Positions 6,687 through 37,822 of a stretch of 38,998 nt of DNA are shown piece after piece. Source of the stretch: a phage; NCBI GenBank assembly GCA_023343535.1, contig GCA_023343535.1_3944.1; one strand, 5' to 3'. The position numbers and the translations under genes are program-made. The notes beneath the pieces were generated by a model. It was not told the DNA's origin. It made no database searches and was given only the letters and a program-made list of their open reading frames with translations. Within the stretch, counting starts at the first letter, position 1. The number at the start of each line of letters is the position of its first letter.

Positions 6687-6943
6687 TTTTACTCCCTCTA
6701 AAATCATTAACCTCATACATTACTGCAAAAAATTATAAAAAGCAAGTTGACAATGCACTTGACAAGGTGTTAATCTTTGCGAAGTGGGTTTTTACTTAAA
6801 AGGTTACTTAACAGTTTAACTATACAGAGACTTTAAAACTCTTAAAAGATTATTTAATAGCTTTTAAAAAGCTTTAAAGTATAACGTATAGAATACGTTA
6901 AGATAAAAGATTAAAACTTAATAGTTACTTAAAAGAGGCTTAC

Positions 6944-7366
6944 ATGCAGAAAATGTTTGTTCACCCAGACATAGCTGACTTTGTTAGAGCTTTGCAGAAG
7001 TTGGAAGAACTTGACATTGCTGCTCAACGGGAATATGCTCACCATCACAGGAGAATGGTTGATATACAACATGAAATAGAGTTATCTGAAAACTATGAAG
7101 ATGACTTAAAATGCTCTGTGTTTGAGCATATGAAAGATGTTGCTACAGCGAGACGTAAAGCTAAAGACACAGTTGCTTTACTAGATTCTCTTAAAAAGAG
7201 GTTGCAAAGTGGTACAGACCTGTGTAATCTAGCATCACTGATTAACGATGTTGAAACTTCTTGGGATAGGCACTATTATCCACGTTCTGAAAAGACACTT
7301 GACTTTTCTTCATCAGAAAACTTAAAATGTTCTAGAAAGAAACTTAACCAACTGAGAGAGAAATAA
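6944..7366 (+). CDS. hypothetical protein
   Basis: First gene of the rightward block; AGAGG Shine-Dalgarno; no recognisable motif. Confidence 0.5.
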   Translation: MQKMFVHPDIADFVRALQKLEELDIAAQREYAHHHRRMVDIQHEIELSENYEDDLKCSVFEHMKDVATARRKAKDTVALLDSLKKRLQSGTDLCNLASLINDVETSWDRHYYPRSEKTLDFSSSENLKCSRKKLNQLREK

Positions 7367-7367
7367 T

Positions 7368-8168
7368 ATGAATATCGATGTAGAAAAGATGCTTGAAGAA
7401 AAAGGTATTGACGAAGCATTTTTAATCAATGCCGTAGAAAGTATGGCTATGATTCTTCGTGGGAACAACTACACAGAACAGTTTATGCCTTCAAGCTATA
7501 ACTTGCCTGAAGACAAGTCTGATAACGGTGCTTTTGCAGAACAGGTTAACATGATGTTGACAGACACTACACTTGCTCTGGCATCTATTGCGGTTGGTGT
7601 TGATGCACTTGCTGAGTTCATCTTTTATGAAATGCAAAAGAATGACTATATCAGGATGTCAGACGAAGATAAGGAACTGTTGCTGACTAAGGACACTGAT
7701 TTCATTATTGATACGCTTATCTCATCAACAAGTGCTGTTATGGCTGCTCTTGAGAAGCGTATGGAAGAGAAACTTTCACGATATGAAAAACTTGATTGGG
7801 GCGTAGAAGAACTAAACCCACGAATCAAGGAGATTATCCAGCAAACTAAAGAGTCTTTGGAAGAAGCTGTTGAAAATGACTCTGTAGCTGATATAGAACC
7901 ACTTCAGGTGAAAGTTGCACTGATGATTCCAGCTATCTCTACGATGATGAATATCGTTGCACTAATCCAACTTTCACAGATGATGGGTATGAGTATTGAG
8001 TTCATTGAGGAGATGACTGGCGGTGTCAGTATGCAAGCAATCAATGATGTTTTGGTGAACATTGGTGCTTCAATCATTGAAGAGAAACTACGCATTAACT
8101 TCGGTGATGATTTTGTTAAGCAACTCTCAGCTATGGCTGAAAAAGAGTCTGCTGAGCAACTGCACTAA
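7368..8168 (+). CDS. hypothetical protein
   Basis: 266-aa ORF followed by intrinsic terminator 8187-8210. Confidence 0.5.
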   Translation: MNIDVEKMLEEKGIDEAFLINAVESMAMILRGNNYTEQFMPSSYNLPEDKSDNGAFAEQVNMMLTDTTLALASIAVGVDALAEFIFYEMQKNDYIRMSDEDKELLLTKDTDFIIDTLISSTSAVMAALEKRMEEKLSRYEKLDWGVEELNPRIKEIIQQTKESLEEAVENDSVADIEPLQVKVALMIPAISTMMNIVALIQLSQMMGMSIEFIEEMTGGVSMQAINDVLVNIGASIIEEKLRINFGDDFVKQLSAMAEKESAEQLH

Positions 8169-8229: not shown

Positions 8230-8973
8230 ATGAGTAATATTATCGCATTTACTGGAAAGGCACGTTCTGGAAAAGACACCTCATGCTCTATTGTGAAGAA
8301 CATCTTAGAGGATGAGTACGGCTACAATGTTGCAGTGATGGCCTATGCAGACAACCTTAAGCTATCTGCATCAAGGATATTTGACCTAACTTGGAATGAC
8401 CTGTATGGTGAAACTAAAGAGACTCCACAGGTTTTTGACTTATCATATCCTGAACTAATGGTCAAAGTTACTGAAGCTATGGAGTTCACCTTTGAAGGTG
8501 AACGTTACCATATGGATTTTAAGCTTATGTCAGAGTTAACCGGACGATTAATCATGGAGCTTAAGAAGGTTGCTAAACCGACTCTATTAACACGTCTGGG
8601 ATTTAGCAAAAAGTATAGATTCTCATCAAGGCAAATTCAACAGATTTGGGGCACTGAAGTTATCCGTAAAGTTATGGGTGACAAGTTCTGGTCTAAAGAC
8701 CTCGAAAAACGAATGGTAAATTTCTTTGATGTTTGCTCACTTAGAAATCAAGAAGGTGTTGTTTTAATCAGTGATTTAAGATTTGACTCTGAAGCTGAGT
8801 GGCTGAGTAGATTTGCACACCAAACTATTGAAGTAAAAAGAGACAATGTGGACAAAGTTTCATCACATGTTTCAGAAAATGGCATTTCTACAAAATATGA
8901 GCGTGACATTATTCATAATAATGGTACTCTTGAAGACCTTGAGAGCAAACTAAGAGCTATCCTGAAGATTTAA
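8230..8973 (+). CDS. deoxynucleoside monophosphate kinase-like P-loop protein
   Basis: N-terminal IIAFTGKARSGKDTS resembles the phage dNMP kinase P-loop (xxSGxKRSGKDT); AGGGAG Shine-Dalgarno. Confidence 0.6.
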   Translation: MSNIIAFTGKARSGKDTSCSIVKNILEDEYGYNVAVMAYADNLKLSASRIFDLTWNDLYGETKETPQVFDLSYPELMVKVTEAMEFTFEGERYHMDFKLMSELTGRLIMELKKVAKPTLLTRLGFSKKYRFSSRQIQQIWGTEVIRKVMGDKFWSKDLEKRMVNFFDVCSLRNQEGVVLISDLRFDSEAEWLSRFAHQTIEVKRDNVDKVSSHVSENGISTKYERDIIHNNGTLEDLESKLRAILKI

Positions 8974-8981
8974 AAGAGAGA

Positions 8982-9182
8982 ATGAAGATGAGAGTAAAAG
9001 ACAATTTTAAAGTTATTGACCACCGTTTAGTGGAACTCTCATCTCTTTCCAATGAGGTAATGATTGAACGTCTTAAGAGAGTTGAATCACGAAGGAAAGA
9101 GATTGCAGATGAAATTCATGAACTGGACAAGATTGAAAATGGATTGAAGGCAGAACTACAACGAAGAGGTGCTAATGTCTAA
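8982..9182 (+). CDS. small coiled-coil protein
   Basis: 66-aa charged ORF overlapping the primase-helicase start by 8 nt. Confidence 0.4.
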   Translation: MKMRVKDNFKVIDHRLVELSSLSNEVMIERLKRVESRRKEIADEIHELDKIENGLKAELQRRGANV

Positions 9183-19624: not shown

Positions 19625-19823
19625 ACGCCTTTGGGAAGGTTTGGTTGTTGATGCACCAGCTATTGTGATTGGTATGCTTATTGTTAACCTATTTACTGAC
19701 TTTGAACAAGGTTCATTGTTTGGAGCCATGTTACTATGGGTTATCTTTGAAATATTAGAGATACAGTTAGGTATCACTGAAAAACTAAGAGAACTCTTTG
19801 CGAAGTTTTCTAAAAAGATTTAA
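19617..19823 (+). CDS. small membrane protein
   Basis: 68 aa with a hydrophobic segment (VVDAPAIVIGMLIVNLF ... AMLLWVIF). Confidence 0.4.
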   Translation: MLKRLWEGLVVDAPAIVIGMLIVNLFTDFEQGSLFGAMLLWVIFEILEIQLGITEKLRELFAKFSKKI

Positions 19824-19831
19824 AATGAAAG

Positions 19832-19852
19832 GGTCTCTTCGGAGACCTTTTT
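19832..19852 (+). terminator. intrinsic terminator (UUCG tetraloop)
   Basis: GGTCTC-TTCG-GAGACC then TTTTT. Confidence 0.6.
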
Positions 19853-23324: not shown

Positions 23325-23666
23325 ATGTTCTACAGAACAAACTTAACCGTTTGTGTCACTGAAAAAGAACTTAAAACATTTTGTGAAAAGATTGAGAGAG
23401 ATAGTGAAATGGGAATCTGGAATAGTTTTAAATCAAAAGTAAAAGCAGCATTGGCATCATTAGGTATGCTCACTGGTGTTGATGTGACCCATCTTATGCA
23501 AAACTTCAAGATGGATGAAAAGTTGGCTAATGAGATTATGAAAAGCATCTATGTAGGCCGTGGAAAAGGTGGTAAAAAACAAGCACATCGACCAACTGGT
23601 GCAGCAGCAATTAAACGTGCAGCTAAGAAAGCTCGTAACCGTAAACGTAACAAGAAGGTTAAATAA
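23325..23666 (+). CDS. hypothetical protein with highly basic C-terminal tail
   Basis: C-terminus AAIKRAAKKARNRKRNKKVK. Confidence 0.45.
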   Translation: MFYRTNLTVCVTEKELKTFCEKIERDSEMGIWNSFKSKVKAALASLGMLTGVDVTHLMQNFKMDEKLANEIMKSIYVGRGKGGKKQAHRPTGAAAIKRAAKKARNRKRNKKVK

Positions 23667-23668
23667 TC

Positions 23669-23989
23669 ATGAACAAAGTTTATAACACTCGTAAATTACA
23701 GATTTTCGTACTGTGCCAATTTATGGCTAAAGAGTATAACTACTACTACTGTGGTACAGGGTTCATTAGTGATGATGACGGCTCATATCTACCATTCAAA
23801 GAGGCTGTAAAACTCTTCAATGAAGAGGAAAGCTCTAAGAAAGATATTGAAAAGGTTAAGCTAACCTACAGCAAGAAAGATAAGAAGATTATCTGCCTAG
23901 ATAACTTTGTAAAAGTTACTGGAGAAGCAAAAGAGTTTATGGATGAGAGTGAAATCTCGTTCACAAGCATCTTGAAAGTAGCTCAGTAA
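23669..23989 (+). CDS. hypothetical protein
   Basis: 106-aa ORF followed by terminator 24003-24026. Confidence 0.45.
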   Translation: MNKVYNTRKLQIFVLCQFMAKEYNYYYCGTGFISDDDGSYLPFKEAVKLFNEEESSKKDIEKVKLTYSKKDKKIICLDNFVKVTGEAKEFMDESEISFTSILKVAQ

Positions 23990-24002
23990 ACAAATACTAT
24001 AA

Positions 24003-24026
24003 GGGAACTGTAAAGGTTCCCTTTTT
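24003..24026 (+). terminator. intrinsic terminator
   Basis: GGGAAC / GTTCCC stem, 7-nt loop, TTTTT. Confidence 0.55.
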
Positions 24027-24040
24027 ATTTTGGAGATAAT

Positions 24041-24556
24041 ATGTACCTGTCAAACCTGAAACGTTCTGCTGCAATGTCAGTGTTAAGACTCAGTTTTGAG
24101 GAACGTCAAGAGTTCATTGACTCCCACCAATACGACCCTTCTAACTCCAATCACATGATTCTCTGGAATCGTGACAGTACTCGTGAAAGAGCACTTGTCC
24201 GTTATTACCCACACTACACAATAGATAACCTATATGAATGGTGTGTTGTGAAGAACACTATTGCAACACTGAACAATCTTTGCAGGTATACAGGTAAGCA
24301 AACATTTACATTAGGCCACCACAAACCTGTTACAAAGGGTGGTGAGCATCACTGTGCAAACTGGTTTATCCAGACTAAACTTGATAACCAGAAGCAAGGA
24401 GATAACCTTCTAAGCACTCCTAAGATGACCTATGAAGAGCAAGAGAAATATATCAAAAATAATATGCCAGATGTGCTTGACAACAACTATACAGATTTGG
24501 CAATATCTCTCCTGTTGAAGTTCGAGACAGTTTATAGGGCGACTTACAATGGCTAA
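24041..24556 (+). CDS. HNH endonuclease-like protein
   Basis: GHHKPVTKGGEHHCANW ... N fits the HH-x-P-x3-GG-...-N HNH pattern. Confidence 0.4.
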   Translation: MYLSNLKRSAAMSVLRLSFEERQEFIDSHQYDPSNSNHMILWNRDSTRERALVRYYPHYTIDNLYEWCVVKNTIATLNNLCRYTGKQTFTLGHHKPVTKGGEHHCANWFIQTKLDNQKQGDNLLSTPKMTYEEQEKYIKNNMPDVLDNNYTDLAISLLLKFETVYRATYNG

Positions 24557-24827
24557 AGAGAAGTGGGAGATTTTACCATTAGTCAGTGAAGGTGGTAATG
24601 GTTGTGAAATGTACATGATACGTGGTCATGTTCCAGAACCAATTGCACTTGAGATGGTAAACAACTTTACAGATGGCTCTTACAAAGACTTAGGGGAGCC
24701 AACTATAAAGCAGCAATGGGTAAAGCCTGTACCAGACAGCACAGGTAACTGTAGTGTACTTTATCACGTTGTAGACCCTGTAAAATGCAAATCTGCAATG
24801 GCAGTAACAAACGTAACTTTTGATTGA
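24549..24827 (+). CDS. hypothetical protein
   Basis: 92-aa ORF overlapping the upstream stop. Confidence 0.4.
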   Translation: MAKEKWEILPLVSEGGNGCEMYMIRGHVPEPIALEMVNNFTDGSYKDLGEPTIKQQWVKPVPDSTGNCSVLYHVVDPVKCKSAMAVTNVTFD

Positions 24828-24836
24828 GAGAAAATT

Positions 24837-25292
24837 ATGATTTTTTGCAGCTTCCAAAAAAGAATTATTGAGATTCTATACAATAAGTTTGGGACAGATA
24901 ACACATTTGACTCAAATGAAGCTATTGAAGCCCTACAAGAAGGAAGTGATTACATCAAAAAACAGCCAATAGCAAACATCAGGTACTACTTGACTCAGAT
25001 GAGAAAGTGGGGTGTGCTCATCGTGGTAGGACAGATTAAGCAACAAGGGAGGATGCTCATCAACCAATTAAATAGAGGTTTTATTGAGAAGCACATTCAG
25101 CTAGACTATTTACTTAAAGAGCCACGAAACCAACGTGAAGAGCAGCAAAAAGACTTAAGTGGTGGTGTAGGTGTGTCTCCAGACATAAAATTCTTTATTG
25201 GTGAGTTGATGTTTGATACACTCCAAGATGCTGTTGAACACTGCAAAAAGTATATTATCAAAGTAAAACGTGCAAAAATTATTTGGGAGTAA
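24837..25292 (+). CDS. tandem paralog family member A1 (unknown function; winged-helix-like N-terminus inferred)
   Basis: Shares N-terminal (MIFCxxQKxxIEILYxxFGTxNTFDSNEAIxAL), central (GRxxINQLNRxFxEKHIQL) and C-terminal (EHCKxxxIKVKxAKxIWE) blocks with 25714-26178. Confidence 0.6.
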   Translation: MIFCSFQKRIIEILYNKFGTDNTFDSNEAIEALQEGSDYIKKQPIANIRYYLTQMRKWGVLIVVGQIKQQGRMLINQLNRGFIEKHIQLDYLLKEPRNQREEQQKDLSGGVGVSPDIKFFIGELMFDTLQDAVEHCKKYIIKVKRAKIIWE

Positions 25293-25296
25293 TAAC

Positions 25297-25692
25297 ATGT
25301 TTGAGCTTCTGAAGGTTCTGTATATAAATTTTGGCTATGATAAAACATTTTCTGGCTCACAACTAACTAAGGTTTTTAATAAATATCTACCACATGCTTC
25401 AATCAGGGATAAAGCTAATTGGTCTCACAGATTACGTAAAAGTGGGTACATTAGTGTTGTTGGAGCGACAGGATTTAATAATGAGTATCTTATGAGAATC
25501 AATGAAAGCAAAGCTAAAAATGTGCTTTTAAATTGTAATGACTATCAACAAAAGGATGAAGAGGTCAGTGTAGGTGAAGTAGGGTACTTCATAGGTGACA
25601 TACACTTTACCAGTATGGAGGCAGCAGTTGAGCATTGTAAGAGGACGGTTATCCAAACAAAAAGAAAGCGTATTGTTTGGGAAGAAGTTTAA
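25297..25692 (+). CDS. tandem paralog family member B1 (unknown function)
   Basis: ATG at 25297, 4 nt after A1 stop. Shares ELLKVLYxxFGYDKTF and AxEHCKxxxIQxKRxxxVWE with 26183-26563 and the C-terminal block with the A members. Confidence 0.55.
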   Translation: MFELLKVLYINFGYDKTFSGSQLTKVFNKYLPHASIRDKANWSHRLRKSGYISVVGATGFNNEYLMRINESKAKNVLLNCNDYQQKDEEVSVGEVGYFIGDIHFTSMEAAVEHCKRTVIQTKRKRIVWEEV

Positions 25693-25713
25693 ACATTTGA
25701 TTAGGAATACACT

Positions 25714-26178
25714 ATGATTTTTTGCAATTTACAGAAGCACGTAATAGAGATTTTATACAAAACCTTCGGGACAGAAAACACTTTTGACTCTAACGAAGCA
25801 ATTGACGCATTAAGAGAGAATAGCCTTTTTATACGAGGCCAGTCAATCAGTAATACCCGTGGGTATCTAACAATGTTAAGACAGTCTGGTGTACTACTGA
25901 CTGTAGGGCAGGTAAAAAGCAAAGGTAGACTAAGTATTAATCAATTAAATCGGGCCTTTATGGAGAAGCACATACAACTGTCAAGGATGCTAGATAACAC
26001 GCGTGAAGAGTTGGGGAGTTCACAAAAATCAAACTTATCTGAGGTTAAAGATGTTGATGTACAACCTGACGTAAGATACTTTATCGCGGATGTTATGTTT
26101 AAAACACTAGATGAAGCTATTGAGCACTGCAAAGAGCATCTTATTAAAGTTAAACATGCAAAAGTTATTTGGGAGTGA
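25714..26178 (+). CDS. tandem paralog family member A2
   Basis: Roughly half of residues identical to A1 by eye; same conserved blocks. Confidence 0.6.
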   Translation: MIFCNLQKHVIEILYKTFGTENTFDSNEAIDALRENSLFIRGQSISNTRGYLTMLRQSGVLLTVGQVKSKGRLSINQLNRAFMEKHIQLSRMLDNTREELGSSQKSNLSEVKDVDVQPDVRYFIADVMFKTLDEAIEHCKEHLIKVKHAKVIWE

Positions 26179-26182
26179 TGTT

Positions 26183-26563
26183 ATGATTGAACTGTTAAAA
26201 GTCCTGTATAATGAGTTTGGCTATGATAAAACATTTACTTGCTCACAGATACGTAGTATCCATGACAAGGAATTTCCAGATGTATCCAAGACAAACAAGT
26301 CAACTCGGTTCAATCGTCTTCGCCAGAGGGGTTACATTAAAATAGTTGGATACAAGAAGAACTCTTTCGAGTATGTAATGCAGATTAACAGAGAAGTATC
26401 AAGTAAAATACTTGAAGAGCCAACAGCCGAAGAACAAAAGATACAAGATGGTGAAGTTCGCTTCTTTGTGGAGAAGGAAAGTTTTGGGTCAATAGATGAA
26501 GCTATCGAATATTGTAAAAAGAACATTATCCAGATAAAGCGTAGAAAGGTTATTTGGGAATAA
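26183..26563 (+). CDS. tandem paralog family member B2
   Basis: ATG at 26183, 4 nt after A2 stop; homologous to B1 with conserved C-terminal EYCKKNIIQIKRRKVIWE. Confidence 0.55.
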   Translation: MIELLKVLYNEFGYDKTFTCSQIRSIHDKEFPDVSKTNKSTRFNRLRQRGYIKIVGYKKNSFEYVMQINREVSSKILEEPTAEEQKIQDGEVRFFVEKESFGSIDEAIEYCKKNIIQIKRRKVIWE

Positions 26564-26577
26564 AGAGAGAGAAAACT

Positions 26578-27459
26578 ATGAAAACATCTATTCGTGTTAT
26601 AATTCATTCACCGACAAAAGGGTCTCATGAAGAAGAGTTTAACATCATCCAGTTCCCTTCTGGTGAGATTGGTGGACACTTTTCACAAGAGCTTGTTGAT
26701 TTTACTGCTTATGCAGCATCATCCATCAACAACGTGATTATGATTGTAAAGGGTTATGACAAAGACACATTATTTGCTGTGGCACTTGCTAAAGAAGCAA
26801 TTGACGATTTAGTACCCCATAAGTTTGCTATGAAGACTGCTATCTTTTACTATTTGCCAAATGCACGTTACGACCGTCACATGTTTAAAGGTGATGCAGC
26901 AGCTTTGAAAGTGTTTGCACAACAGGTTAATGCAATGGGTTTTGATGCAGTCTGTGCAGTTGACCCTCACAGCTATGTACCAGATAACCTGTTTAACTGC
27001 TTCCAGAGTATTCCTCAAAAGGAAATTGCAGTTCACTATGCAAATGACCCTCTAATTGATTACTTAGTAGCCCCAGATGCAGGTGCTGCTAAGAAGATTG
27101 CAGAGACTGCTAAAGAGGTGGATAAACCATACATCACAATGTCTAAAGTACGTAACCTCAAGACTGGTGAAATTACTGGTATGCGAATCCTTGATGATGT
27201 TGATTTGACAGATAAAACCGTCATGATTCTGGATGATATTTGTGATGGAGGACAAACCTTCATAGAAGCAGCTAAACATCTTCGTGAAGCAGGTGCAAAA
27301 CGTGTGGAACTCTATGTAACGCATGGTATCTTCTCTAAAGATGTTGAAAACCTTCTTGACAATGGTATCGACCATATTTACACTACAAACTCTTTAGGCG
27401 AAGCTAAAGACCGTGGCTTAACACATTATAGTCAAGTTACTGTAGCAAACCTTGATTGA
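26578..27459 (+). CDS. ribose-phosphate pyrophosphokinase (Prs)-like protein; candidate ADPR-pyrophosphate synthetase (Adps) of an NARP1-type module
   Basis: C-terminal block VMILDDICDGGQTFIEAAKHLREAGAKRVELYVTHGIFS closely parallels the canonical Prs PRPP-binding region (VLVDDMIDTGGT ... GAKRV ... THPIFS). ORF-track start 26554 is TTG; ATG at 26578 follows GAGAGAG. Confidence 0.75.
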   Translation: MKTSIRVIIHSPTKGSHEEEFNIIQFPSGEIGGHFSQELVDFTAYAASSINNVIMIVKGYDKDTLFAVALAKEAIDDLVPHKFAMKTAIFYYLPNARYDRHMFKGDAAALKVFAQQVNAMGFDAVCAVDPHSYVPDNLFNCFQSIPQKEIAVHYANDPLIDYLVAPDAGAAKKIAETAKEVDKPYITMSKVRNLKTGEITGMRILDDVDLTDKTVMILDDICDGGQTFIEAAKHLREAGAKRVELYVTHGIFSKDVENLLDNGIDHIYTTNSLGEAKDRGLTHYSQVTVANLD

Positions 27460-27468
27460 AAGTTTATA

Positions 27469-27489
27469 GGGGCTTAAAAGCCCCATTTT
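27469..27489 (+). terminator. short hairpin + U-run between the Prs-like and NAMPT-like genes (attenuator or weak terminator)
   Basis: GGGGCT-TAAA-AGCCCC then ATTTT. Confidence 0.35.
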
Positions 27490-27504
27490 GAGAGAGATTA
27501 AAAG

Positions 27505-29286
27505 ATGACTAAATCACTTTATGCAGTACCAGCAGGTTTAAACGCAGATGCTTACAAATCTGGTCATGTTTACCAGTATCCTAGTGCAACAGAGTACTTG
27601 ATGTTCAACCTGACACCACGTAGTGACAAATGGTTTAACAGCCCCTTAGCAATTGATGGTGTAGTGGCTTTTGGTATTCAACGTTTCGTTAAAGATTACT
27701 TAATAGACCACTGGAACGCCACTTTCTTTGAACGTGATAAAAAAGAAGCAATTGACGAAATCTTAGAAGTCATGAATGGTGTTCTGGGCAAAGATGCTAT
27801 CGGTCGAGAACATTGGGAAGCACTTCACGACTTAGGTTATCTACCAGTTGAAGTATACGCTGTAGAAGAAGGCACAGTTGTTCCAATGCGTGTTCCAATG
27901 ATTGTCTTCCAGAACACTGTTTCAGGTTTCCATTGGGTAGCAGGTTATCTAGAAGACGCTTTCTCTGCTGAGATTTGGAAGGCTTGCACCATTGCAACTA
28001 TTGCATTGCACTACAAACGTATCTGTAAGAAGTGGGCTGACCTCACTTGCGACAACGACTTGCATTTACCTTATCAGTGCCATGACTTTGCTATGCGTGG
28101 TATGTCCGGCTTTACTGATGACGCATTCAACGCTGTAGGACACTTAACCAGCTTTAAAGGGACTGATAGCTTCCCTGCTGTATACACGGCTAAACGTATC
28201 TATGGGCAGACCTATCCAATCTCTGATATTGGAAGCTCTGTACCAGCCACTGAACACTCTGTAATGTGTGCAAACATTGCTTGGGAAGGTGGTAACGAGT
28301 TGGTTGAAGAAGAAAGACGATTTAAAGGTGAGTTACAAACCTTCCGTCATTTCTTAACAGAAACTTACCCAACTGGTATTGCAAGTATTGTTTCAGACAC
28401 TTATAACTTCTGGAGAACTGTGTCAGAAATCTTACCAGCACTTCGTAAAGAAATTATGGAACGTGACGGTAAACTGGTAATTCGTCCTGACTCTGGAGAC
28501 CCTGTACATATTGTCACAGGTTATAAAGCAATCCACTTAGAGTGTGCTAAAAAGGCTTATTACGAGCACCTAAGCAAGCTGGAAGCCAGTGACACAATGC
28601 TGAATGCTGTTCTGAACATGAAGCTTGAAAACATCAGCTATGGTATTGCTGGATGGCTACTGTCAGAAGGCTACGAAATGGTTGTTGACCGAGAAGACTT
28701 TGAAGTTGCTGATACAGTGATGTTGAAAAATGCTTATATGGTTGGCTCTGCAAACGTTGTAACACGTCCTGTAGCTGAGATTGATGGAGCTATTAAGACA
28801 CTGTACAACATCTTTGGGGGAACTATTAACTCTAAAGGATTTAAGGTACTGGACGAGCATATCGGCCTTATCTATGGTGACTCTATCACACTGGAACGTG
28901 CAAACGAAATCCTGAAGCGTCTGTATGAAATGGGTTTTGCAAGCTCTAACGTGGTGTTTGGCGTAGGTTCTTACACTTACCAGTACATGACTCGTGACAC
29001 CTTTGCATTTGCTGTCAAAGCAACTCTTGCAAGCATTGGTGGTAAAGAGATTATGCTTGCAAAAGACCCTAAAACAGATAGTGGTGTTAAGAAATCTGCC
29101 TTTGGTGGTGTAGCACCTATGTGGGATGGTGATAAGCTGAAAGCTGTAGATGGCTATGGATTCCAGAGTTTTGCAGATGTACTTGACCACCCAGCTTGTG
29201 CTTTACGTTTAGTCTTTAGTGACTCTGAGCAGTTCGGTTACACAACTCTTGGTAATATTCGAAATAATATTGACAAGCAGCTTTAA
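27505..29286 (+). CDS. nicotinamide phosphoribosyltransferase (NAMPT/NadV)-family protein; candidate nicotinamide-ADPR transferase (Namat) of an NARP1-type module
   Basis: NAMPT-family blocks DAYKSGHVYQYP, HDFAMRGMSG ... SFKGTDS ... SSVPATEHS, SDTYNFW, IRPDSGDP; 593 aa. Confidence 0.8.
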   Translation: MTKSLYAVPAGLNADAYKSGHVYQYPSATEYLMFNLTPRSDKWFNSPLAIDGVVAFGIQRFVKDYLIDHWNATFFERDKKEAIDEILEVMNGVLGKDAIGREHWEALHDLGYLPVEVYAVEEGTVVPMRVPMIVFQNTVSGFHWVAGYLEDAFSAEIWKACTIATIALHYKRICKKWADLTCDNDLHLPYQCHDFAMRGMSGFTDDAFNAVGHLTSFKGTDSFPAVYTAKRIYGQTYPISDIGSSVPATEHSVMCANIAWEGGNELVEEERRFKGELQTFRHFLTETYPTGIASIVSDTYNFWRTVSEILPALRKEIMERDGKLVIRPDSGDPVHIVTGYKAIHLECAKKAYYEHLSKLEASDTMLNAVLNMKLENISYGIAGWLLSEGYEMVVDREDFEVADTVMLKNAYMVGSANVVTRPVAEIDGAIKTLYNIFGGTINSKGFKVLDEHIGLIYGDSITLERANEILKRLYEMGFASSNVVFGVGSYTYQYMTRDTFAFAVKATLASIGGKEIMLAKDPKTDSGVKKSAFGGVAPMWDGDKLKAVDGYGFQSFADVLDHPACALRLVFSDSEQFGYTTLGNIRNNIDKQL

Positions 29287-29301
29287 AAGTATATGATAAG
29301 A

Positions 29302-29322
29302 GGCTCCTACGGGAGCCTTTTT
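29302..29322 (+). terminator. intrinsic terminator
   Basis: GGCTCC-TACG-GGAGCC then TTTTT. Confidence 0.6.
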
Positions 29323-29339
29323 AATTTCTGGAGAAGATT

Positions 29340-29675
29340 ATGAAAATCAAAGAAATGAACATTAACGTTGTCCTAGAAGAACGTTGGGAGAATATTAAGA
29401 AACCTGAAGATGGTAAAAAGTTCCTTAACAAAATTTTAGTAGCAGCTAAAGAAGAACTGACTGGCAAGATTGCAGCAGCAATCACAATAAAAGTCTGTGT
29501 AAAAGGTCTTCCACAACATCACCAATTTGCACTTGACGAGTTTAAAGAAAGCTTCTACAATCCAAACAAACAGATGCTTGAAAGTAACTTTGCAGTGTCT
29601 ACAAGTATCGTCCATGACAGAAGCTTTATCCTTTACAAAAATATGAGAGGTGAGTCATGCAAGCATATTGGATAG
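29340..29675 (+). CDS. hypothetical protein
   Basis: 111-aa ORF with GGAGAAG Shine-Dalgarno. Confidence 0.45.
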   Translation: MKIKEMNINVVLEERWENIKKPEDGKKFLNKILVAAKEELTGKIAAAITIKVCVKGLPQHHQFALDEFKESFYNPNKQMLESNFAVSTSIVHDRSFILYKNMRGESCKHIG

Positions 29676-29833
29676 AAATTTTACTGTCACTTGGTAGTGT
29701 AGCAGTATTTGTTTACCTTCTTTGCAAGTACTATGCAGAGTGCAAGAAGTGTGATTACTGCAACGGGGAAGGGTATACAAGAGCAGGTTGTTGCCCTATT
29801 TGTGGTGGTTCTGGTAAAATGTTTAATAAGTAA
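29657..29833 (+). CDS. candidate small membrane-anchored zinc-ribbon protein (58 aa)
   Basis: Translation MQAYWIEILLSLGSVAVFVYLLCKYYAECKKCDYCNGEGYTRAGCCPICGGSGKMFNK: hydrophobic N-terminal segment plus CxxC ... CxxC. Below the ORF-track cutoff. Confidence 0.35.
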   Translation: MQAYWIEILLSLGSVAVFVYLLCKYYAECKKCDYCNGEGYTRAGCCPICGGSGKMFNK

Positions 29834-29861
29834 TTTAACAGTGAACTAAGAGGAAAGTATT

Positions 29862-32228
29862 ATGCGCATGGTAAACGACCACGCAGAAGTGATTAAGAGT
29901 TCAACTTCTTTGGAGACATCTCAAGCACAGATTACAATGACACCTGAAATGTTCAGCCTTTTGAGTTCTGGTGTATACACATTTAAAGAGCGAGCAGTGA
30001 TTCGTGAACTGTCATGTAATGCAGTGGATGCTCAGAAAGAAGCTGGAAAAGAGAACATCCCATTCCATGTGCATTTACCTACTCGATTTGAGCCTTACTT
30101 TGAAGTCCGTGACTTTGGAACTGGTTTAACCCACGACAAAGTAATGAGTTTGTATCTGAACTACGGGGCTTCTACGAAGAATGACTCTAATGATTACATT
30201 GGTGCAATGGGTATCGGCTCAAAATCCCCATTTGCAATTGCTCAGTCATTCACAGTATCTAGTTATGTTGATGGTGTTGTTAATAAGTACTCTGTTTACC
30301 TTGAGAATGGTATCCCTCAAGTAACTAAGCTTACTACTAACCCAACAAATGAACCCAATGGTTTAGCTGTACGTGTAGCAGTTGCTGACCACCGTATTTC
30401 AAAGTTCTTTGAAGAGGCTGGTCACGTATATTCATACTTTGCTGTAAAACCAGAAAGCAATATTGTATATGATGATGTGTTAGCAGATATGAACGTCATT
30501 GCCCGTGAAGAGGGTGTTTATGATGCTATGATTCATAAGCAAAGCTGGCGTTCTAGTGGCAACAGGACAGAGTTTAACGTGGTGATGGGTAATATTGCCT
30601 ATCCAGTTAATATGGAAGCATTACTTGGTGATGATTTCTTCAAAGTCTTGCCAGAATTTTTCCGTAGGAGCGTAGACCTTGTAAACATTTACATGCCTAT
30701 TGGTTCAGTTGCTATTGCAGCTTCTCGTGAAGCATTGCAGATGAATGATACGACAAAAAATGTTATCATTGAGGCTACTAAAAAGATAACTGAAGCAATT
30801 ACAAGGGATGTTATTAAGGGAGTTAATAACCAACCTACACTCATGGATGCTGCACAGGCTTATGCAGAGTTACGTTTGAACTCACGAGAAATGTTTAATG
30901 CTGTGTGTCCAAAGCTAGAGTGGGGAGGTGTTAAGCTTGATTCTCTGGAAGAAGAATTGCTAAACATTCGTCGTGGGATTATCTACGCAGAAGACGGCTC
31001 AGTCATTTATGAACGTGACGGTAAAGGTAATATCAAGGTTGATAGGAACGGGAACAATATCCCTAAAGTGGATTATCTTTATAATCCAGTTGCTTATGTC
31101 AAGTTCAACTCTTTAGAGAGTAAGATTCGTGCAACAGCACTTTCCTACACTCAAGAGGCAAGTATGTTCAATATCTTTGGTGCAATGCGTAAAAGCCAAA
31201 TTGAACAGTTTTTGTTCGTGATTAATGACCGTCGTAATAAAAATGGCACTGAGAAGACTGTAGGCCGCAATCAGATTCTGCGTGGTGCATGTCGAGACTA
31301 CGCTAACGAGTCAAGCCTGTTCCACAGATACAATGGTATTGTGTTTGTATTCTCGACTGAAAAAGAGTTAGATGATTTAATCAACCTACATAAACTTGAT
31401 AAAAGTTTGTTAAAGATTGTGAAGATGTCTGATAAGGAACACCATTATCAGCGTAAAGAGGCTGTGAGGGGTGTTGTAAAACTCTGGAAAGCTGTTCCAT
31501 CAGAAACTAAAGCTTCATACACAGAGGTGTCAGAAGACCTAGATACAATTGAAGAACCCCAGCTTTATATCAAGGCAGTAGGCGACACAGTTGATGGTGA
31601 ATGTTTTTGCTCATCCCCAGAAGATGTAGCTAAAACAATTGCTAATGTTATAGGAAAAACAGTCTATGTTTTCCGAAAAGCAAATTGGAAAAAGATACCA
31701 GAAGACTGGATTGAAGTAGATGAGAAGCTATTGAATGACAGCTTAACTGATGTTCACTGGATTAATCATAACAGGTATATGACACGTATCTATATGAATG
31801 GTGTCCTTGACCTTACAAGTAGTTGGATTATTGCCAGAAACTTTACGTTTAATAACAAGAAGATTTCTCGCGGGTATTGCTATTCACGAGATACAAACAA
31901 AACCATCTTCTTAGAAGGTAATGAGAATGCTGTTGAGGCAATGTTTGGTAAGATTCAGTATGTGGCTGCACCGTTTGCATACACTTACACTATCAGTGTT
32001 CTTCAGGATTTGAAGTCATGCCTTGATAATGATACAAAACTGTACAAAAAGATTAAGAAAGCGGGTGACCGCATGGTTATTAAACTGACAAACTACCTTT
32101 CAAAAAGAAAACAAGAAAACTTCTTGCTTTCCCATTTAGATTGGAATAAAGTGTCACCCATCGAAGTGAGTAAGTTCTTAGGTTTTGATGTGAAGTGTGT
32201 TCCAGAAGGGACTACAATTTACTATTAA
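29862..32228 (+). CDS. rIIA: rIIA-like protein with N-terminal GHKL (Bergerat-fold) ATPase domain
   Basis: GHKL motifs in order: N-box RELSCNAVDA, G1 box RDFGTGLT, G2 box GAMGIGSKS; 788 aa. rIIA naming is by analogy to T4 rIIA and the presence of a downstream partner region. Confidence 0.6.
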   Translation: MRMVNDHAEVIKSSTSLETSQAQITMTPEMFSLLSSGVYTFKERAVIRELSCNAVDAQKEAGKENIPFHVHLPTRFEPYFEVRDFGTGLTHDKVMSLYLNYGASTKNDSNDYIGAMGIGSKSPFAIAQSFTVSSYVDGVVNKYSVYLENGIPQVTKLTTNPTNEPNGLAVRVAVADHRISKFFEEAGHVYSYFAVKPESNIVYDDVLADMNVIAREEGVYDAMIHKQSWRSSGNRTEFNVVMGNIAYPVNMEALLGDDFFKVLPEFFRRSVDLVNIYMPIGSVAIAASREALQMNDTTKNVIIEATKKITEAITRDVIKGVNNQPTLMDAAQAYAELRLNSREMFNAVCPKLEWGGVKLDSLEEELLNIRRGIIYAEDGSVIYERDGKGNIKVDRNGNNIPKVDYLYNPVAYVKFNSLESKIRATALSYTQEASMFNIFGAMRKSQIEQFLFVINDRRNKNGTEKTVGRNQILRGACRDYANESSLFHRYNGIVFVFSTEKELDDLINLHKLDKSLLKIVKMSDKEHHYQRKEAVRGVVKLWKAVPSETKASYTEVSEDLDTIEEPQLYIKAVGDTVDGECFCSSPEDVAKTIANVIGKTVYVFRKANWKKIPEDWIEVDEKLLNDSLTDVHWINHNRYMTRIYMNGVLDLTSSWIIARNFTFNNKKISRGYCYSRDTNKTIFLEGNENAVEAMFGKIQYVAAPFAYTYTISVLQDLKSCLDNDTKLYKKIKKAGDRMVIKLTNYLSKRKQENFLLSHLDWNKVSPIEVSKFLGFDVKCVPEGTTIYY

Positions 32229-33417: not shown

Positions 33418-33434
33418 TAAGTAATTTCTTAAAA

Positions 33435-33456
33435 GGCTGCTTCGGCGGCCTTTTTT
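33435..33456 (+). terminator. intrinsic terminator (UUCG tetraloop)
   Basis: GGCTGC-TTCG-GCGGCC then TTTTTT. Confidence 0.6.
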
Positions 33457-33457
33457 A

Positions 33458-33486
33458 TTTGTATTTTGTGCAGAGTGCTGTATAAT
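33458..33486 (+). promoter_or_regulatory. possible promoter (weak -35, consensus TATAAT -10)
   Basis: TATAAT at 33481-33486 with TTTGTA 17 bp upstream; about 30 nt before the Shine-Dalgarno and ATG of 33518. Confidence 0.3.
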
Positions 33487-34749: not shown

Positions 34750-35214
34750 ATGAACAACATTATCACGGTAGCACTGGACGTTACGGCAAACAAATCTGAG
34801 GTAGTTCGTAACATTATCAAGAGCAACTTTGAGGGTAAAATCTTCCGTGCTGTCAATGTAAAAGCAGACGGCAACATCCGAGAGTATCGTGCTCTTCTGA
34901 ATGTTAAGAAACACGTCAAAGGTGCTGGTTCAACGACTGCACACAAAGAAAACCTGATGACCATCTATGATATGGGTATGGCTTCAGAGTTAGGTGCTGA
35001 AGGTATCGTTAAAGAAGGTGCTCCGTATCGCTCTTTCAATCTGGAAACTGCTCTTATGCTTTCCTTTACAAGTGGTTCTAAAACAACTACTTATCTCTTT
35101 ACTGATGCTGCAACGGTATCTGCTATCAAGGATAACGCTATCAAAGCTGGGGTAGCTGCTGCTGCAAAAGCTTCTTCGATGGCTGCAAATGTCCTTGCTA
35201 AAGTCCTCGGTTAA
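34750..35214 (+). CDS. hypothetical protein
   Basis: 154-aa ORF with strong Shine-Dalgarno, followed by terminator 35228-35249. Confidence 0.5.
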   Translation: MNNIITVALDVTANKSEVVRNIIKSNFEGKIFRAVNVKADGNIREYRALLNVKKHVKGAGSTTAHKENLMTIYDMGMASELGAEGIVKEGAPYRSFNLETALMLSFTSGSKTTTYLFTDAATVSAIKDNAIKAGVAAAAKASSMAANVLAKVLG

Positions 35215-35227
35215 GGTTAAGATACAG

Positions 35228-35249
35228 GCTCCTTCGGGAGCCTTTTTTC
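35228..35249 (+). terminator. intrinsic terminator (UUCG tetraloop)
   Basis: GGCTCC-TTCG-GGAGCC then TTTTTT. Confidence 0.6.
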
Positions 35250-37554: not shown

Positions 37555-37584
37555 GAAACTCCGTAGAATATTCACAATAGTCTA

Positions 37585-37628
37585 AGCCTTCCTTATCTGG
37601 TAAATTTTTCAGGTAAGGAGGGCTTTTT
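37585..37628 (+). terminator. putative intrinsic terminator (long-loop hairpin + U-run)
   Basis: AGCCTTCCTTA / TAAGGAGGGCT arms, then TTTTT. Confidence 0.4.
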
Positions 37629-37822
37629 CATTTCAGATTTGTGCAGGTAGAGTTCTGTAGAGAAATCTGTAGAGAGAATTTTAAACTCCAAAGAGAAAAT
37701 TCATTTTCAAACTGTGCAGGTAATCTCCAAAGAGCTTTTTCATTTTCAAAACGTGCAGACCCCGCTCAGGTCGGGCAAGAAAAATCATTTTAGAATTGTG
37801 CAGGTAGGTGGGTGTAGGTGGG
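37627..37822 (+). repeat. array of four imperfect direct repeats (about 23 bp, consensus TTCATTTTCARAnYTGTGCAGGTA) with nested short repeats; iteron-like
   Basis: Copies at 37627-37650, 37700-37724, 37739-37760 and 37786-37808; also CTCCAAAGAG x2 (37686-37695, 37725-37734), TCTGTAGAG x2 (37654-37674) and GTAGGTGGG x2 (37804-37822). Confidence 0.7.

Follow-up and report, generated by a model that had tools for sequence, protein, structure and literature searches.

What reads the genes that surround the NARP1 enzymes in felixounaviruses, and do four paralogous genes lodged beside those enzymes in some of these phages belong to the same transcription unit? The question is raised by a phage contig of 38,998 nucleotides (nt), GCA_023343535.1_3944.1 from GenBank assembly GCA_023343535.1 (hereafter the window), in which eight + strand genes lie between two strong hairpin/U-run terminators and are separated by gaps of -8, 9, 4, 21, 4, 14, and 45 nt. 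A preliminary description of the sequence proposed that positions 24041-29322 form a single transcription unit in which the paralogs and the enzymes are co-expressed, and took this to strengthen the case that the paralogs have a related counter-defence or takeover role. Over this 5.3-kb span, identity to Escherichia phage finno (Felixounavirus) is 98.7%. In all, 256 phage records match it, nearly all of them from Felixounavirus or other Ounavirinae.

Tight gene packing alone is ordinary for a phage genome, and both base skews and open reading frames (ORFs) indicate that all of the window beyond ~7 kb is coded by the + strand. What exceeds chance, on comparison with related sequences, is not the packing but the conservation of the elements that bound the block. 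We consider it fairly probable that this block constitutes a counter-defence operon, conserved in the Ounavirinae and insulated by terminators, which the host sigma70 RNA polymerase reads from a start at a promoter here named P1, and that the paralog array depends on this promoter.

Boundaries of the block

The left boundary, T1 (24001-24035; stem-loop 24001-24023), consists of a nine-pair stem with a folding energy of -12.4 kcal/mol, followed by TTTATTTT. The right boundary, T2 (29298-29326; stem-loop 29298-29321), has a ten-pair stem (-16.6 kcal/mol) followed by TTTTTAATTT, and marks the end of the unit. Both are predicted intrinsic terminators, each being a G+C-rich stem-loop that passes directly into a U-run. 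T1 is letter-for-letter identical to terminator t124 of phage Felix O1 (PMC3185647). Terminators are annotated at both positions in the record of phage Mordin, and only at the T2 position, after the gene resembling nicotinamide phosphoribosyltransferase (NAMPT), in the record of phage Barry. T1 is present in 33 of 33 loci and T2 is kept in all loci compared, from Felixounavirus as well as Mooglevirus-like phages. T1 is predicted to end the transcripts of the upstream nrd cluster. The outline given in the preliminary description holds up in three respects: the ORF list agrees with the gene positions and their co-directional packing (gaps from -8 to +45 nt); scanning, folding, and conservation across genera agree on both terminators; and a hairpin at 27469 is the sole internal structure, no further perfect stem of at least 6 base pairs (bp) with a T-rich tail having been found on the + strand between T1 and T2.

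The preliminary description named no promoter. The interval between T1 and the first ATG is just 17 nt, which leaves no room for a promoter downstream of the terminator, and a sigma70-like site is instead found directly 5' of each bounding hairpin. P1 (TTGAAA-17-TACTAT; 23972-24000; scan score 9/12) abuts T1, and P2 (TTGACA-16-TATGAT; 29270-29297; 11/12) abuts T2. Among 30 distinct relatives the -35 hexamer of P1 is invariant, as are positions 1, 2, and 6 of its -10 hexamer, while 11 of the 17 spacer columns vary. This conservation holds where the upstream gene is only ~50% identical; the -10 hexamer there reads TATGAT, a variant with which the site scores 10/12. P2 behaves similarly in 22 distinct relatives, with an invariant -35 hexamer, a -10 hexamer of TATGAT or TATTAT, and a varying spacer.

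At the usual spacing, transcripts from P1 are predicted to start at ~24006-24008, within the 5' arm of the T1 hairpin. RNA beginning at 24006 no longer folds this hairpin (-1.8 kcal/mol), and RNA beginning at 29304 retains just a 4-bp remnant of the T2 hairpin. A transcript that starts inside the 5' arm could not form the terminator and so would run on. P2 is likewise a candidate promoter, and would start the next unit, comprising the 111-amino acid (aa) gene and then rIIA.

In the operon model, transcripts from the nrd cluster would stop at T1, and transcripts from P1, which is flush with T1, would start inside the hairpin arm and escape the terminator. The P1 transcript would encode the HNH-like protein, the 92-aa protein, the four paralogs present here, and the first NARP1 enzyme, Adps. 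The gene for the second enzyme, namat, would be read from the same transcript as far as the 27469 hairpin is passed, probably with a contribution from an internal promoter, P_int. All transcription would end at T2, which abuts the promoter of the next unit.

The pairing of promoter and terminator recurs more often than expected. A uniform scan of the window and the rest of the finno genome gave 21 terminator-like hairpins, four of which have an abutting site of at least 9/12 (binomial P ~1e-4 for a background of 1.2% per position). In the half of finno not used to form the idea, two of ten hairpins have an abutting site of at least 10/12 (P ~4e-4). Across positions 7000-38998, the coding strand has 22 sites of at least 10/12 and the opposite strand two, which suggests that many of them are real host-type promoters, about one per 1.5 kb.

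Other sites of this kind were recorded along the way. Two in the window, TTGCGA-17-TAAAAT (19798-19847) and TTGCTA-17-TAAGAT (35195-35243), each end 2-5 nt before a terminator hairpin, and so do two in the rest of finno, TTGACA-17-TATCTT (L040:12072-12089) and TTGACC-17-TATGAT (L040:14137-14160). P1 and P2 are the sole occurrences of the pattern TTGAMA-N16-17-TAYKATWA; since it was derived from those two sites, it was not counted as evidence. A different motif, TTTGTGCAG, has only two exact copies in the window (33465-33473 and 37638-37646), each followed by CTGTAKA and lying 10-12 nt downstream of strong terminators at 33431-33454 and 37584-37625; these copies may represent a second, phage-specific promoter type or may be due to chance. 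A 10/12 promoter-like site, TTGACG-17-TACAAT, lies within the 111-aa gene at 29533-29561, where it overlaps a microhomology, GCACTTGA, described below. A search of Rfam over 23500-30000 returned one sub-threshold chance match only.

The paralog array

Four related genes stand between the 92-aa gene and adps: A1 (24837-25292, 151 aa), B1 (25297-25692, 131 aa), A2 (25714-26178, 154 aa), and B2 (26183-26563, 126 aa). All four match phrog_29478 (E-values of 3e-14 for B1, 8.8e-68 for A2, and 1.3e-15 for B2), and the window contains exactly these four copies, in the order A-B-A-B. A1 and A2 are 58% identical and B1 and B2 42%, while identities between A and B types are 26-33%. Alternative, longer ORFs for B1 and B2 begin at 25270 and 26111, respectively; the best support is for starts at 25297 and 26183, since both have GGGAG 8 nt upstream and align with each other.

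The family is rare. It occurs in 16 of the 256 related GenBank records, and is thus absent from ~94% of them, and in none of 28 IMG/VR loci; most relatives align to only 67% of the 5.3-kb query. Eleven of the 16 records carry the four-gene array and five give a shorter match, which in the two cases inspected, Mordin (Mooglevirus) and Pr103Blw, corresponds to two A-type genes in the same slot. Phages Barry and Bas63 have an empty site here, with the 92-aa gene immediately next to adps. When aligned with the empty site of Barry, the insert proves to have on either side a copy of GAGAGA(GA)AAAyTATGA, the ribosome-binding site (RBS) and start of adps. The left copy, GAGAGAAAATTATGA (24826-24840), marks the left edge of the insertion, and the right copy, GAGAGAGAAAACTATGA (26565-26581), is the native adps RBS and start. 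The block consequently runs T1-171aa-92aa-[0, 2 or 4 paralogs]-Adps-Namat-T2 in Felixounavirus and in the Mooglevirus Mordin. Judged by these alignments, the four paralogs are an accessory insertion placed exactly at the adps RBS rather than an integral part of the operon.

The genes of the array are separated by 4, 21, and 4 nt, with no hairpin between them. Two promoter matches fall inside the array, both at the chance level of 9/12 and one with its -10 hexamer over the A2 start codon, and the scan found no convincing promoter or terminator within it. An array with neither signal evident is likely to be co-transcribed with the operon that hosts it. The paralogs therefore probably rely on transcription from P1, and the lack of signals of their own is the strongest support for the co-expression with the enzymes put forward in the preliminary description, which we likewise regard as probable. 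We envisage that an accessory cassette inserted at the adps RBS, duplicating it and bringing no evident promoter or terminator. A comparison of nonsynonymous and synonymous substitution rates (dN/dS) between these paralogs and those of phage RPN213 yielded too few differences to be informative.

What the paralogs do is addressed chiefly by structure prediction. The family comprises 17 clusters among 5.8 billion proteins, and a profile hidden Markov model scan of 1.84 billion representatives recovered three paralog representatives and one divergent 125-aa member, and thus no distant annotated relative. The AlphaFold model has a mean predicted local distance difference test (pLDDT) score of 77.9; in blocks of ten residues the scores are 84-95 as far as residue 60, and residues 61-90 reach 84-89. 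Its N-terminal winged helix is confident, with an H-beta-H-H-H-beta-beta topology that superposes on known winged helices. The short C-terminal beta-beta-alpha tail is less confident yet bears the most conserved motif of the family, F..G..F.s..EA.EHCK..I..K..K..WE. The paralogs thus appear to be winged-helix proteins of a tiny, Ounavirinae-only family. The basic isoelectric point (7.8-9.1) is the one feature that points to DNA binding.

Comparison with characterised winged helices narrows this little. No Pfam, NCBIfam, or PADLOC sequence match links the paralogs to MarR/PadR-type regulators, and their C-terminal motif has no known counterpart in winged helices of that type. The winged helices of MukF, ORC, and NLR proteins, whose partners include proteins besides DNA, give equally good scores. 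Our best guess is that the paralogs are small, basic, nucleic acid-binding accessory factors of host takeover or counter-defence. The counter-defence role suggested earlier draws on gene neighbourhood, the predicted fold being a generic one. A bolder version, which we hold to be doubtful, is that the winged-helix array is a new accessory counter-defence module of the NARP1 operon that resembles the known NARP1 accessory genes Adpp and RyDEP (see below) in genomic logic but binds nucleic acid or a host defence protein instead of metabolising ADP-ribose derivatives, that the two to four diverged copies result from an arms race with several host targets, and that promoter-terminator cassettes are a general insulator design for adding modules while leaving operon expression undisturbed.

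Counter-defence genes and internal signals

The two enzymes downstream of the array are homologues of the NARP1 pair. Adps (26578-27459), a phosphoribosyl pyrophosphate synthetase-like ADP-ribose (ADPR) pyrophosphokinase, matches PF14572 (E 2.3e-10), PF00156 (E 1.8e-11), TIGR01251 (127.6 bits, above its cut-off), and phrog_619, and is 78.8% identical to, and syntenic with, bas63_0079. Namat (27505-29286), a NAMPT-like nicotinamide ADPR-transferase, matches PF04095 (E 2.9e-35) and PF18127 (25.0 bits, exactly its 25-bit cut-off). Its best solved relatives are structures 9W5W and 9W5X of the SpbetaL1 Namat (E ~1e-127, against 1e-41 for human NAMPT), entries whose identities are taken from PMC12774641. 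The two genes are adjacent on the same strand with a 45-nt spacer, and are syntenic with Bas63 g79-g80. On homology and synteny, the pair is NARP1. By orthology, Adps would pyrophosphorylate ADPR and Namat would join the resulting ADPR pyrophosphate (ADPR-PP) to nicotinamide.

Namat is 593 aa long here, compared with 491-496 aa for the solved SpbetaL1 enzyme, and its matches to solved structures fall in two stretches, the first covering query residues 5-350. Together these features suggest an insertion of ~90-100 residues somewhere after residue 340.

NARP1 was described in Bas63 (JohannRWettstein), itself a Felixounavirus, as genes 79-80 (10.1101/2024.02.11.579819), and in the PhageMaP study both genes are reported to act against Sir2-HerA, retron Ec86, and hhe (10.1101/2024.10.10.617714). 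The Bas63 record (MZ501086) has the order g77 (171 aa), g78 (92 aa), g79, g80. The first gene of the block (24041-24556) encodes a 171-aa protein that is 94% identical to bas63_0077. Deletion of gp77 is reported to lower plating on retron Ec67 tenfold, and complementation to restore it (10.1101/2024.10.10.617714). Three of the four core genes of the block thus have published counter-defence phenotypes in their Bas63 orthologues, and the anti-defence label that the preliminary description gave the neighbours of the paralogs is well founded.

The 171-aa protein contains the invariant motif FTLGHHKPVTKGGEHHxxNWxIQTxxDNQKQG, within which GHH..KGG..N..DNQ lines up by eye with the HNH consensus. It matches phrog_3500 and, at E 3.8e-6, the HNH endonuclease family phrog_2214; no HNH match was found in Pfam or NCBIfam. 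The HNH-like label used in the preliminary description is therefore defensible, though unproven. A GIY-YIG domain is ascribed to gp77 in the PhageMaP preprint (10.1101/2024.10.10.617714); no GIY-YIG signal was seen in the orthologue studied here, whose motif and PHROG match point to an HNH-type fold. The second gene (24549-24827) overlaps the stop codon of the first by 8 nt (ATGgcTAA), and its 92-aa product is 99% identical to Bas63 gp78. Homologue searches place the 171-aa and 92-aa families in Ounavirinae only, and PADLOC, NCBIfam, and Pfam gave no match for the 171-aa, 92-aa, paralog, or 111-aa proteins. A possible homology between the 92-aa and 111-aa proteins, whose genes flank NARP1, was dropped as not significant (hhalign E 0.056, BLASTP E 2.6). 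The 3' third of the 171-aa gene (24440-24540) shows near-zero synonymous variation among felixounaviruses (diversity ~0.014 against a gene mean of 0.22); the stretch includes TTGACA at 24477-24482, with no usable -10 hexamer.

One promoter-like site inside the block stands out. P_int (TTGACA-17-TACACT; 27356-27384; 10/12) lies within the 3' end of adps, ~120 nt 5' of the namat start codon. Across 32 distinct adps sequences neither hexamer varies in any of its columns (12 in all, four of them synonymous third positions), whereas 8 of the 17 spacer columns vary, as do 47% of adps columns and 84% of third codon positions overall. Of all the placements that adps allows, just 0.2% reach this level of conservation, and eleven other promoter-like matches in core genes, which serve as an internal control, are unremarkable. 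Matches at 24522, 25690, 26385, and 29239, among others, were dropped because they are unconserved or would start transcripts inside the downstream gene. Constraint on the hexamers that extends to synonymous sites implies that namat may have its own start, and we predict that it probably does, ~115 nt 5' of the ATG.

Between P_int and namat lies the internal hairpin, GGGGCT-TAAA-AGCCCC followed by ATTTT (27469-27489; stem-loop 27469-27484). Its folding energy is -11.5 kcal/mol, and its tail of one A and four T fails the U-run rule of the scanner. The six stem pairs are 97.8% intact among 15 distinct sequences that cover both genera, while the four loop positions vary freely. It is a plausible candidate for a weak attenuator or terminator, or for a 3' stabiliser of the adps message. 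In six relatives a ~0.5-kb insert takes its place, and in phages Si3 and PMBT20 the matching stretch carries the annotation of an HNH endonuclease. The insert appears to be an HNH homing-endonuclease gene, for which the adps-namat spacer (27460-27504 in the window) may be the homing site.

Plasticity, competing readings, and related systems

Three junctions of the block vary: that between the 92-aa gene and adps (0, 2 or 4 paralogs), that between adps and namat (the ~0.5-kb insert, in six loci), and that between namat and the 111-aa gene (extra genes, in seven loci). In the third slot, just after T2, extra genes of 114 aa or 71-72 aa precede the 111-aa gene (L016, L020, and L026, ~8763-9107; L025, L028, L029, and L030, ~8798-9016 in L025); these inserts are not bracketed by duplicated promoter/terminator cassettes. 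The adps gene itself occurs in Felixounavirus as two alleles, with ~95% and ~79% protein identity to that of the window. Around the second allele (L024, L026, L031, and L038, the last being Bas63) the flanking 92-aa gene and namat remain 96-99% identical, so that two alleles between near-identical flanks imply recombination breakpoints at both ends of adps.

A metagenomic phage, L034 (5493-8832), lacks NARP1. Downstream of its 171-aa gene, the N-terminal half of the 92-aa protein is fused in frame to the C-terminal half of the 111-aa protein, giving an 80-aa product; after this fusion stand a 60-aa ORF and rIIA. The junction falls at GCACTTGA, which is common to both parent genes (24645-24652 and 29529-29536 in the window) and is preceded by CCAATT in each.

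Several observations weigh against the operon model. Reverse transcription PCR (RT-PCR) in Felix O1 assigned ORFs 124-130 together with ORF 1 (rIIA) to one temporal class peaking at 25 min (PMC3185647). The common peak of ORFs 125-128 is consistent with co-expression inside the block; the same data put the block and its neighbours in one class, which leaves room for leaky terminators and for a unit that is not separate in practice. Our literature search found no transcriptome or promoter map for any Felixounavirus. The promoter-terminator pattern was first noticed in the window, and its independent test, the other half of finno, contributes two sites only. P1 in this phage scores at the chance level on its own, and its -35 hexamer falls in coding sequence (Leu-Lys). 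The internal hairpin has a poor U-run (one A and four U, or ACUUU in Mooglevirus-like phages), and the insert that replaces it in L006, L009, L011, L022, L028, and L029 (~6880-7400) indicates that it is dispensable for NARP1. No covariation was found among the 15 stem sequences, which are invariant there, so the structure is neither proven nor refuted by them. The paralogs, finally, have a generic fold, a low-confidence C-terminal model, and no homologue of known function.

The Felix O1 data would suit an arrangement with no discrete unit at all, in which overlapping sigma70 transcripts cover everything from nrd to rIIA/rIIB, leaky hairpins serve chiefly to stabilise the 3' ends of RNAs, and shared expression with the enzymes is uninformative about the paralogs. 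The shared 25-min peak fits this picture, as does the admission of the Felix O1 authors that they cannot say how transcription passes the many terminators (PMC3185647). So too do the 22 coding-strand sites of at least 10/12 in 32 kb and the placement of all genes from 7 kb to the window end on one strand. However, four time points of endpoint RT-PCR are too coarse to separate transcription units, the hairpins of T1 and T2 are strong ones with good U-runs that are conserved across genera, and a promoter placed to skip a hairpin is sensible only if that hairpin stops upstream transcripts. We therefore think this arrangement rather unlikely. It is improbable, too, that the block is split in two by the 27469 hairpin acting as a real terminator of P1 transcripts, with namat read mainly from P_int and the Adps/Namat ratio set by promoter strength. 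P_int is the sole internal promoter-like site under clear sequence constraint, and the hairpin stem is both stable and invariant across genera. Yet P_int lies upstream of the hairpin and its transcripts must themselves cross it, the U-run is weak, six relatives tolerate an insert in its place, and published work treats g79-g80 as one operon, albeit without transcript mapping (10.1101/2024.02.11.579819).

The plasticity of the block invites a reading at the level of DNA, in which the conserved intergenic elements are recombination linkers or homing targets for module swapping and owe their conservation to gene flow, as proposed for the PeSL cassettes discussed below. The three variable slots, the two adps alleles between ~97% identical flanks, and the natural NARP1 deletion with its junction at the shared GCACTTGA are all in its favour. 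Neither the third-slot inserts nor the paralogs are flanked by duplicated promoter-hairpin cassettes, however, the latter lying between copies of the RBS/ATG. The positions that are conserved are moreover those recognised by sigma70 (TTGAnA; T1, A2, and T6 of the -10 hexamer), while the spacers drift. We judge such a role very unlikely to be the main explanation; it would in any case be compatible with a transcriptional one.

The operon model remains the reading that we favour, in a form that modifies the single unit first proposed. Two conserved terminators, short gaps, and the lack of an internal terminator other than the hairpin argue for one unit, whereas the conserved P_int inside adps argues against it; P_int would weaken the case for namat and not for the paralogs. 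Independent promoters, which the preliminary description named as telling against a single unit, are thus indicated for namat only, none convincing having been found for the paralogs. The Felix O1 RT-PCR shows no difference in kinetics between the block and its neighbours. The operon inference itself is sound but ordinary.

The closest known system is the NARP1 locus of Bas63, which shares genus and gene order with the window, as well as the upstream promoter/terminator cassette and the adps-namat hairpin. Identities are 94% for the 171-aa protein, 99% for the 92-aa protein, and 79% for Adps, and Namat is syntenic with gp80. Bas63 differs in having an empty site between g78 and g79, where the array lies here, and in carrying the other adps allele. 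Published work on it describes a two-gene operon and gives no promoter/terminator map.

Accessory genes in NARP1 operons have precedents. Extended operons encode Adpp, a Macro-domain phosphatase of ADPR-1P, in Vibrio phage Gary, and RyDEP, a cyclic ADPR (cADPR) glycosidase, in mycobacteriophage DyoEdafos, and work from 2026 found that extra genes lodged in NARP1 operons widen what NARP1 counters. Like the paralogs, Adpp and RyDEP are encoded in or against the Adps-Namat pair and are absent from near-identical relatives, and RyDEP was discovered by the same comparative logic as is applied to the array here. In contrast, both are enzymes acting on ADPR derivatives, whereas the paralogs have no Macro or RyR match, are predicted to be winged helices, and form a four-gene array that is located 5' of adps and not between the genes of the two enzymes.

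Cassettes of promoter and stem-loop, called promoter-early stem-loops (PeSLs), were described in the T4-type phages RB49 and phi1 (Arbiol, Comeau and Krisch 2010, PMC2839356). As with P1/T1 and P2/T2, a sigma70-type promoter and a stem-loop occupy a short intergenic element before the Shine-Dalgarno sequence and ATG, and one PeSL subclass has its stem-loop downstream of the -10 hexamer, as in P1/T1. PeSLs occur in variable regions rich in orphan genes. The cassettes described here belong to another phage family, are known from sequence, share architecture and little sequence, and have their -35 hexamer inside the preceding gene; unlike PeSL-flanked genes, neither the paralog array nor the third-slot inserts lie between a pair of cassettes.

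NARP1, its Bas63 orthologues, the existence of NARP1 accessory genes, and promoter/stem-loop cassettes were thus already known. New are the candidate promoter/terminator map, including a putative internal promoter for namat, the recognition of the array as a rare insert with no evident promoter, and its predicted winged-helix fold. The Felix O1 genome paper called transcription in this group not understood (PMC3185647), and the promoter-abutting-terminator design, together with the candidate namat promoter, offers concrete and cheaply testable predictions. NARP1, described only recently, is a widespread means by which phages answer NAD+-depleting immunity. The locus adds that in Felixounavirus it sits in a four-gene block with defined variable slots, one of which holds a rare family of predicted winged-helix proteins. 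Phages with and without the array are ~95-99% identical over the rest of the block, and so provide near-natural controls for its function.

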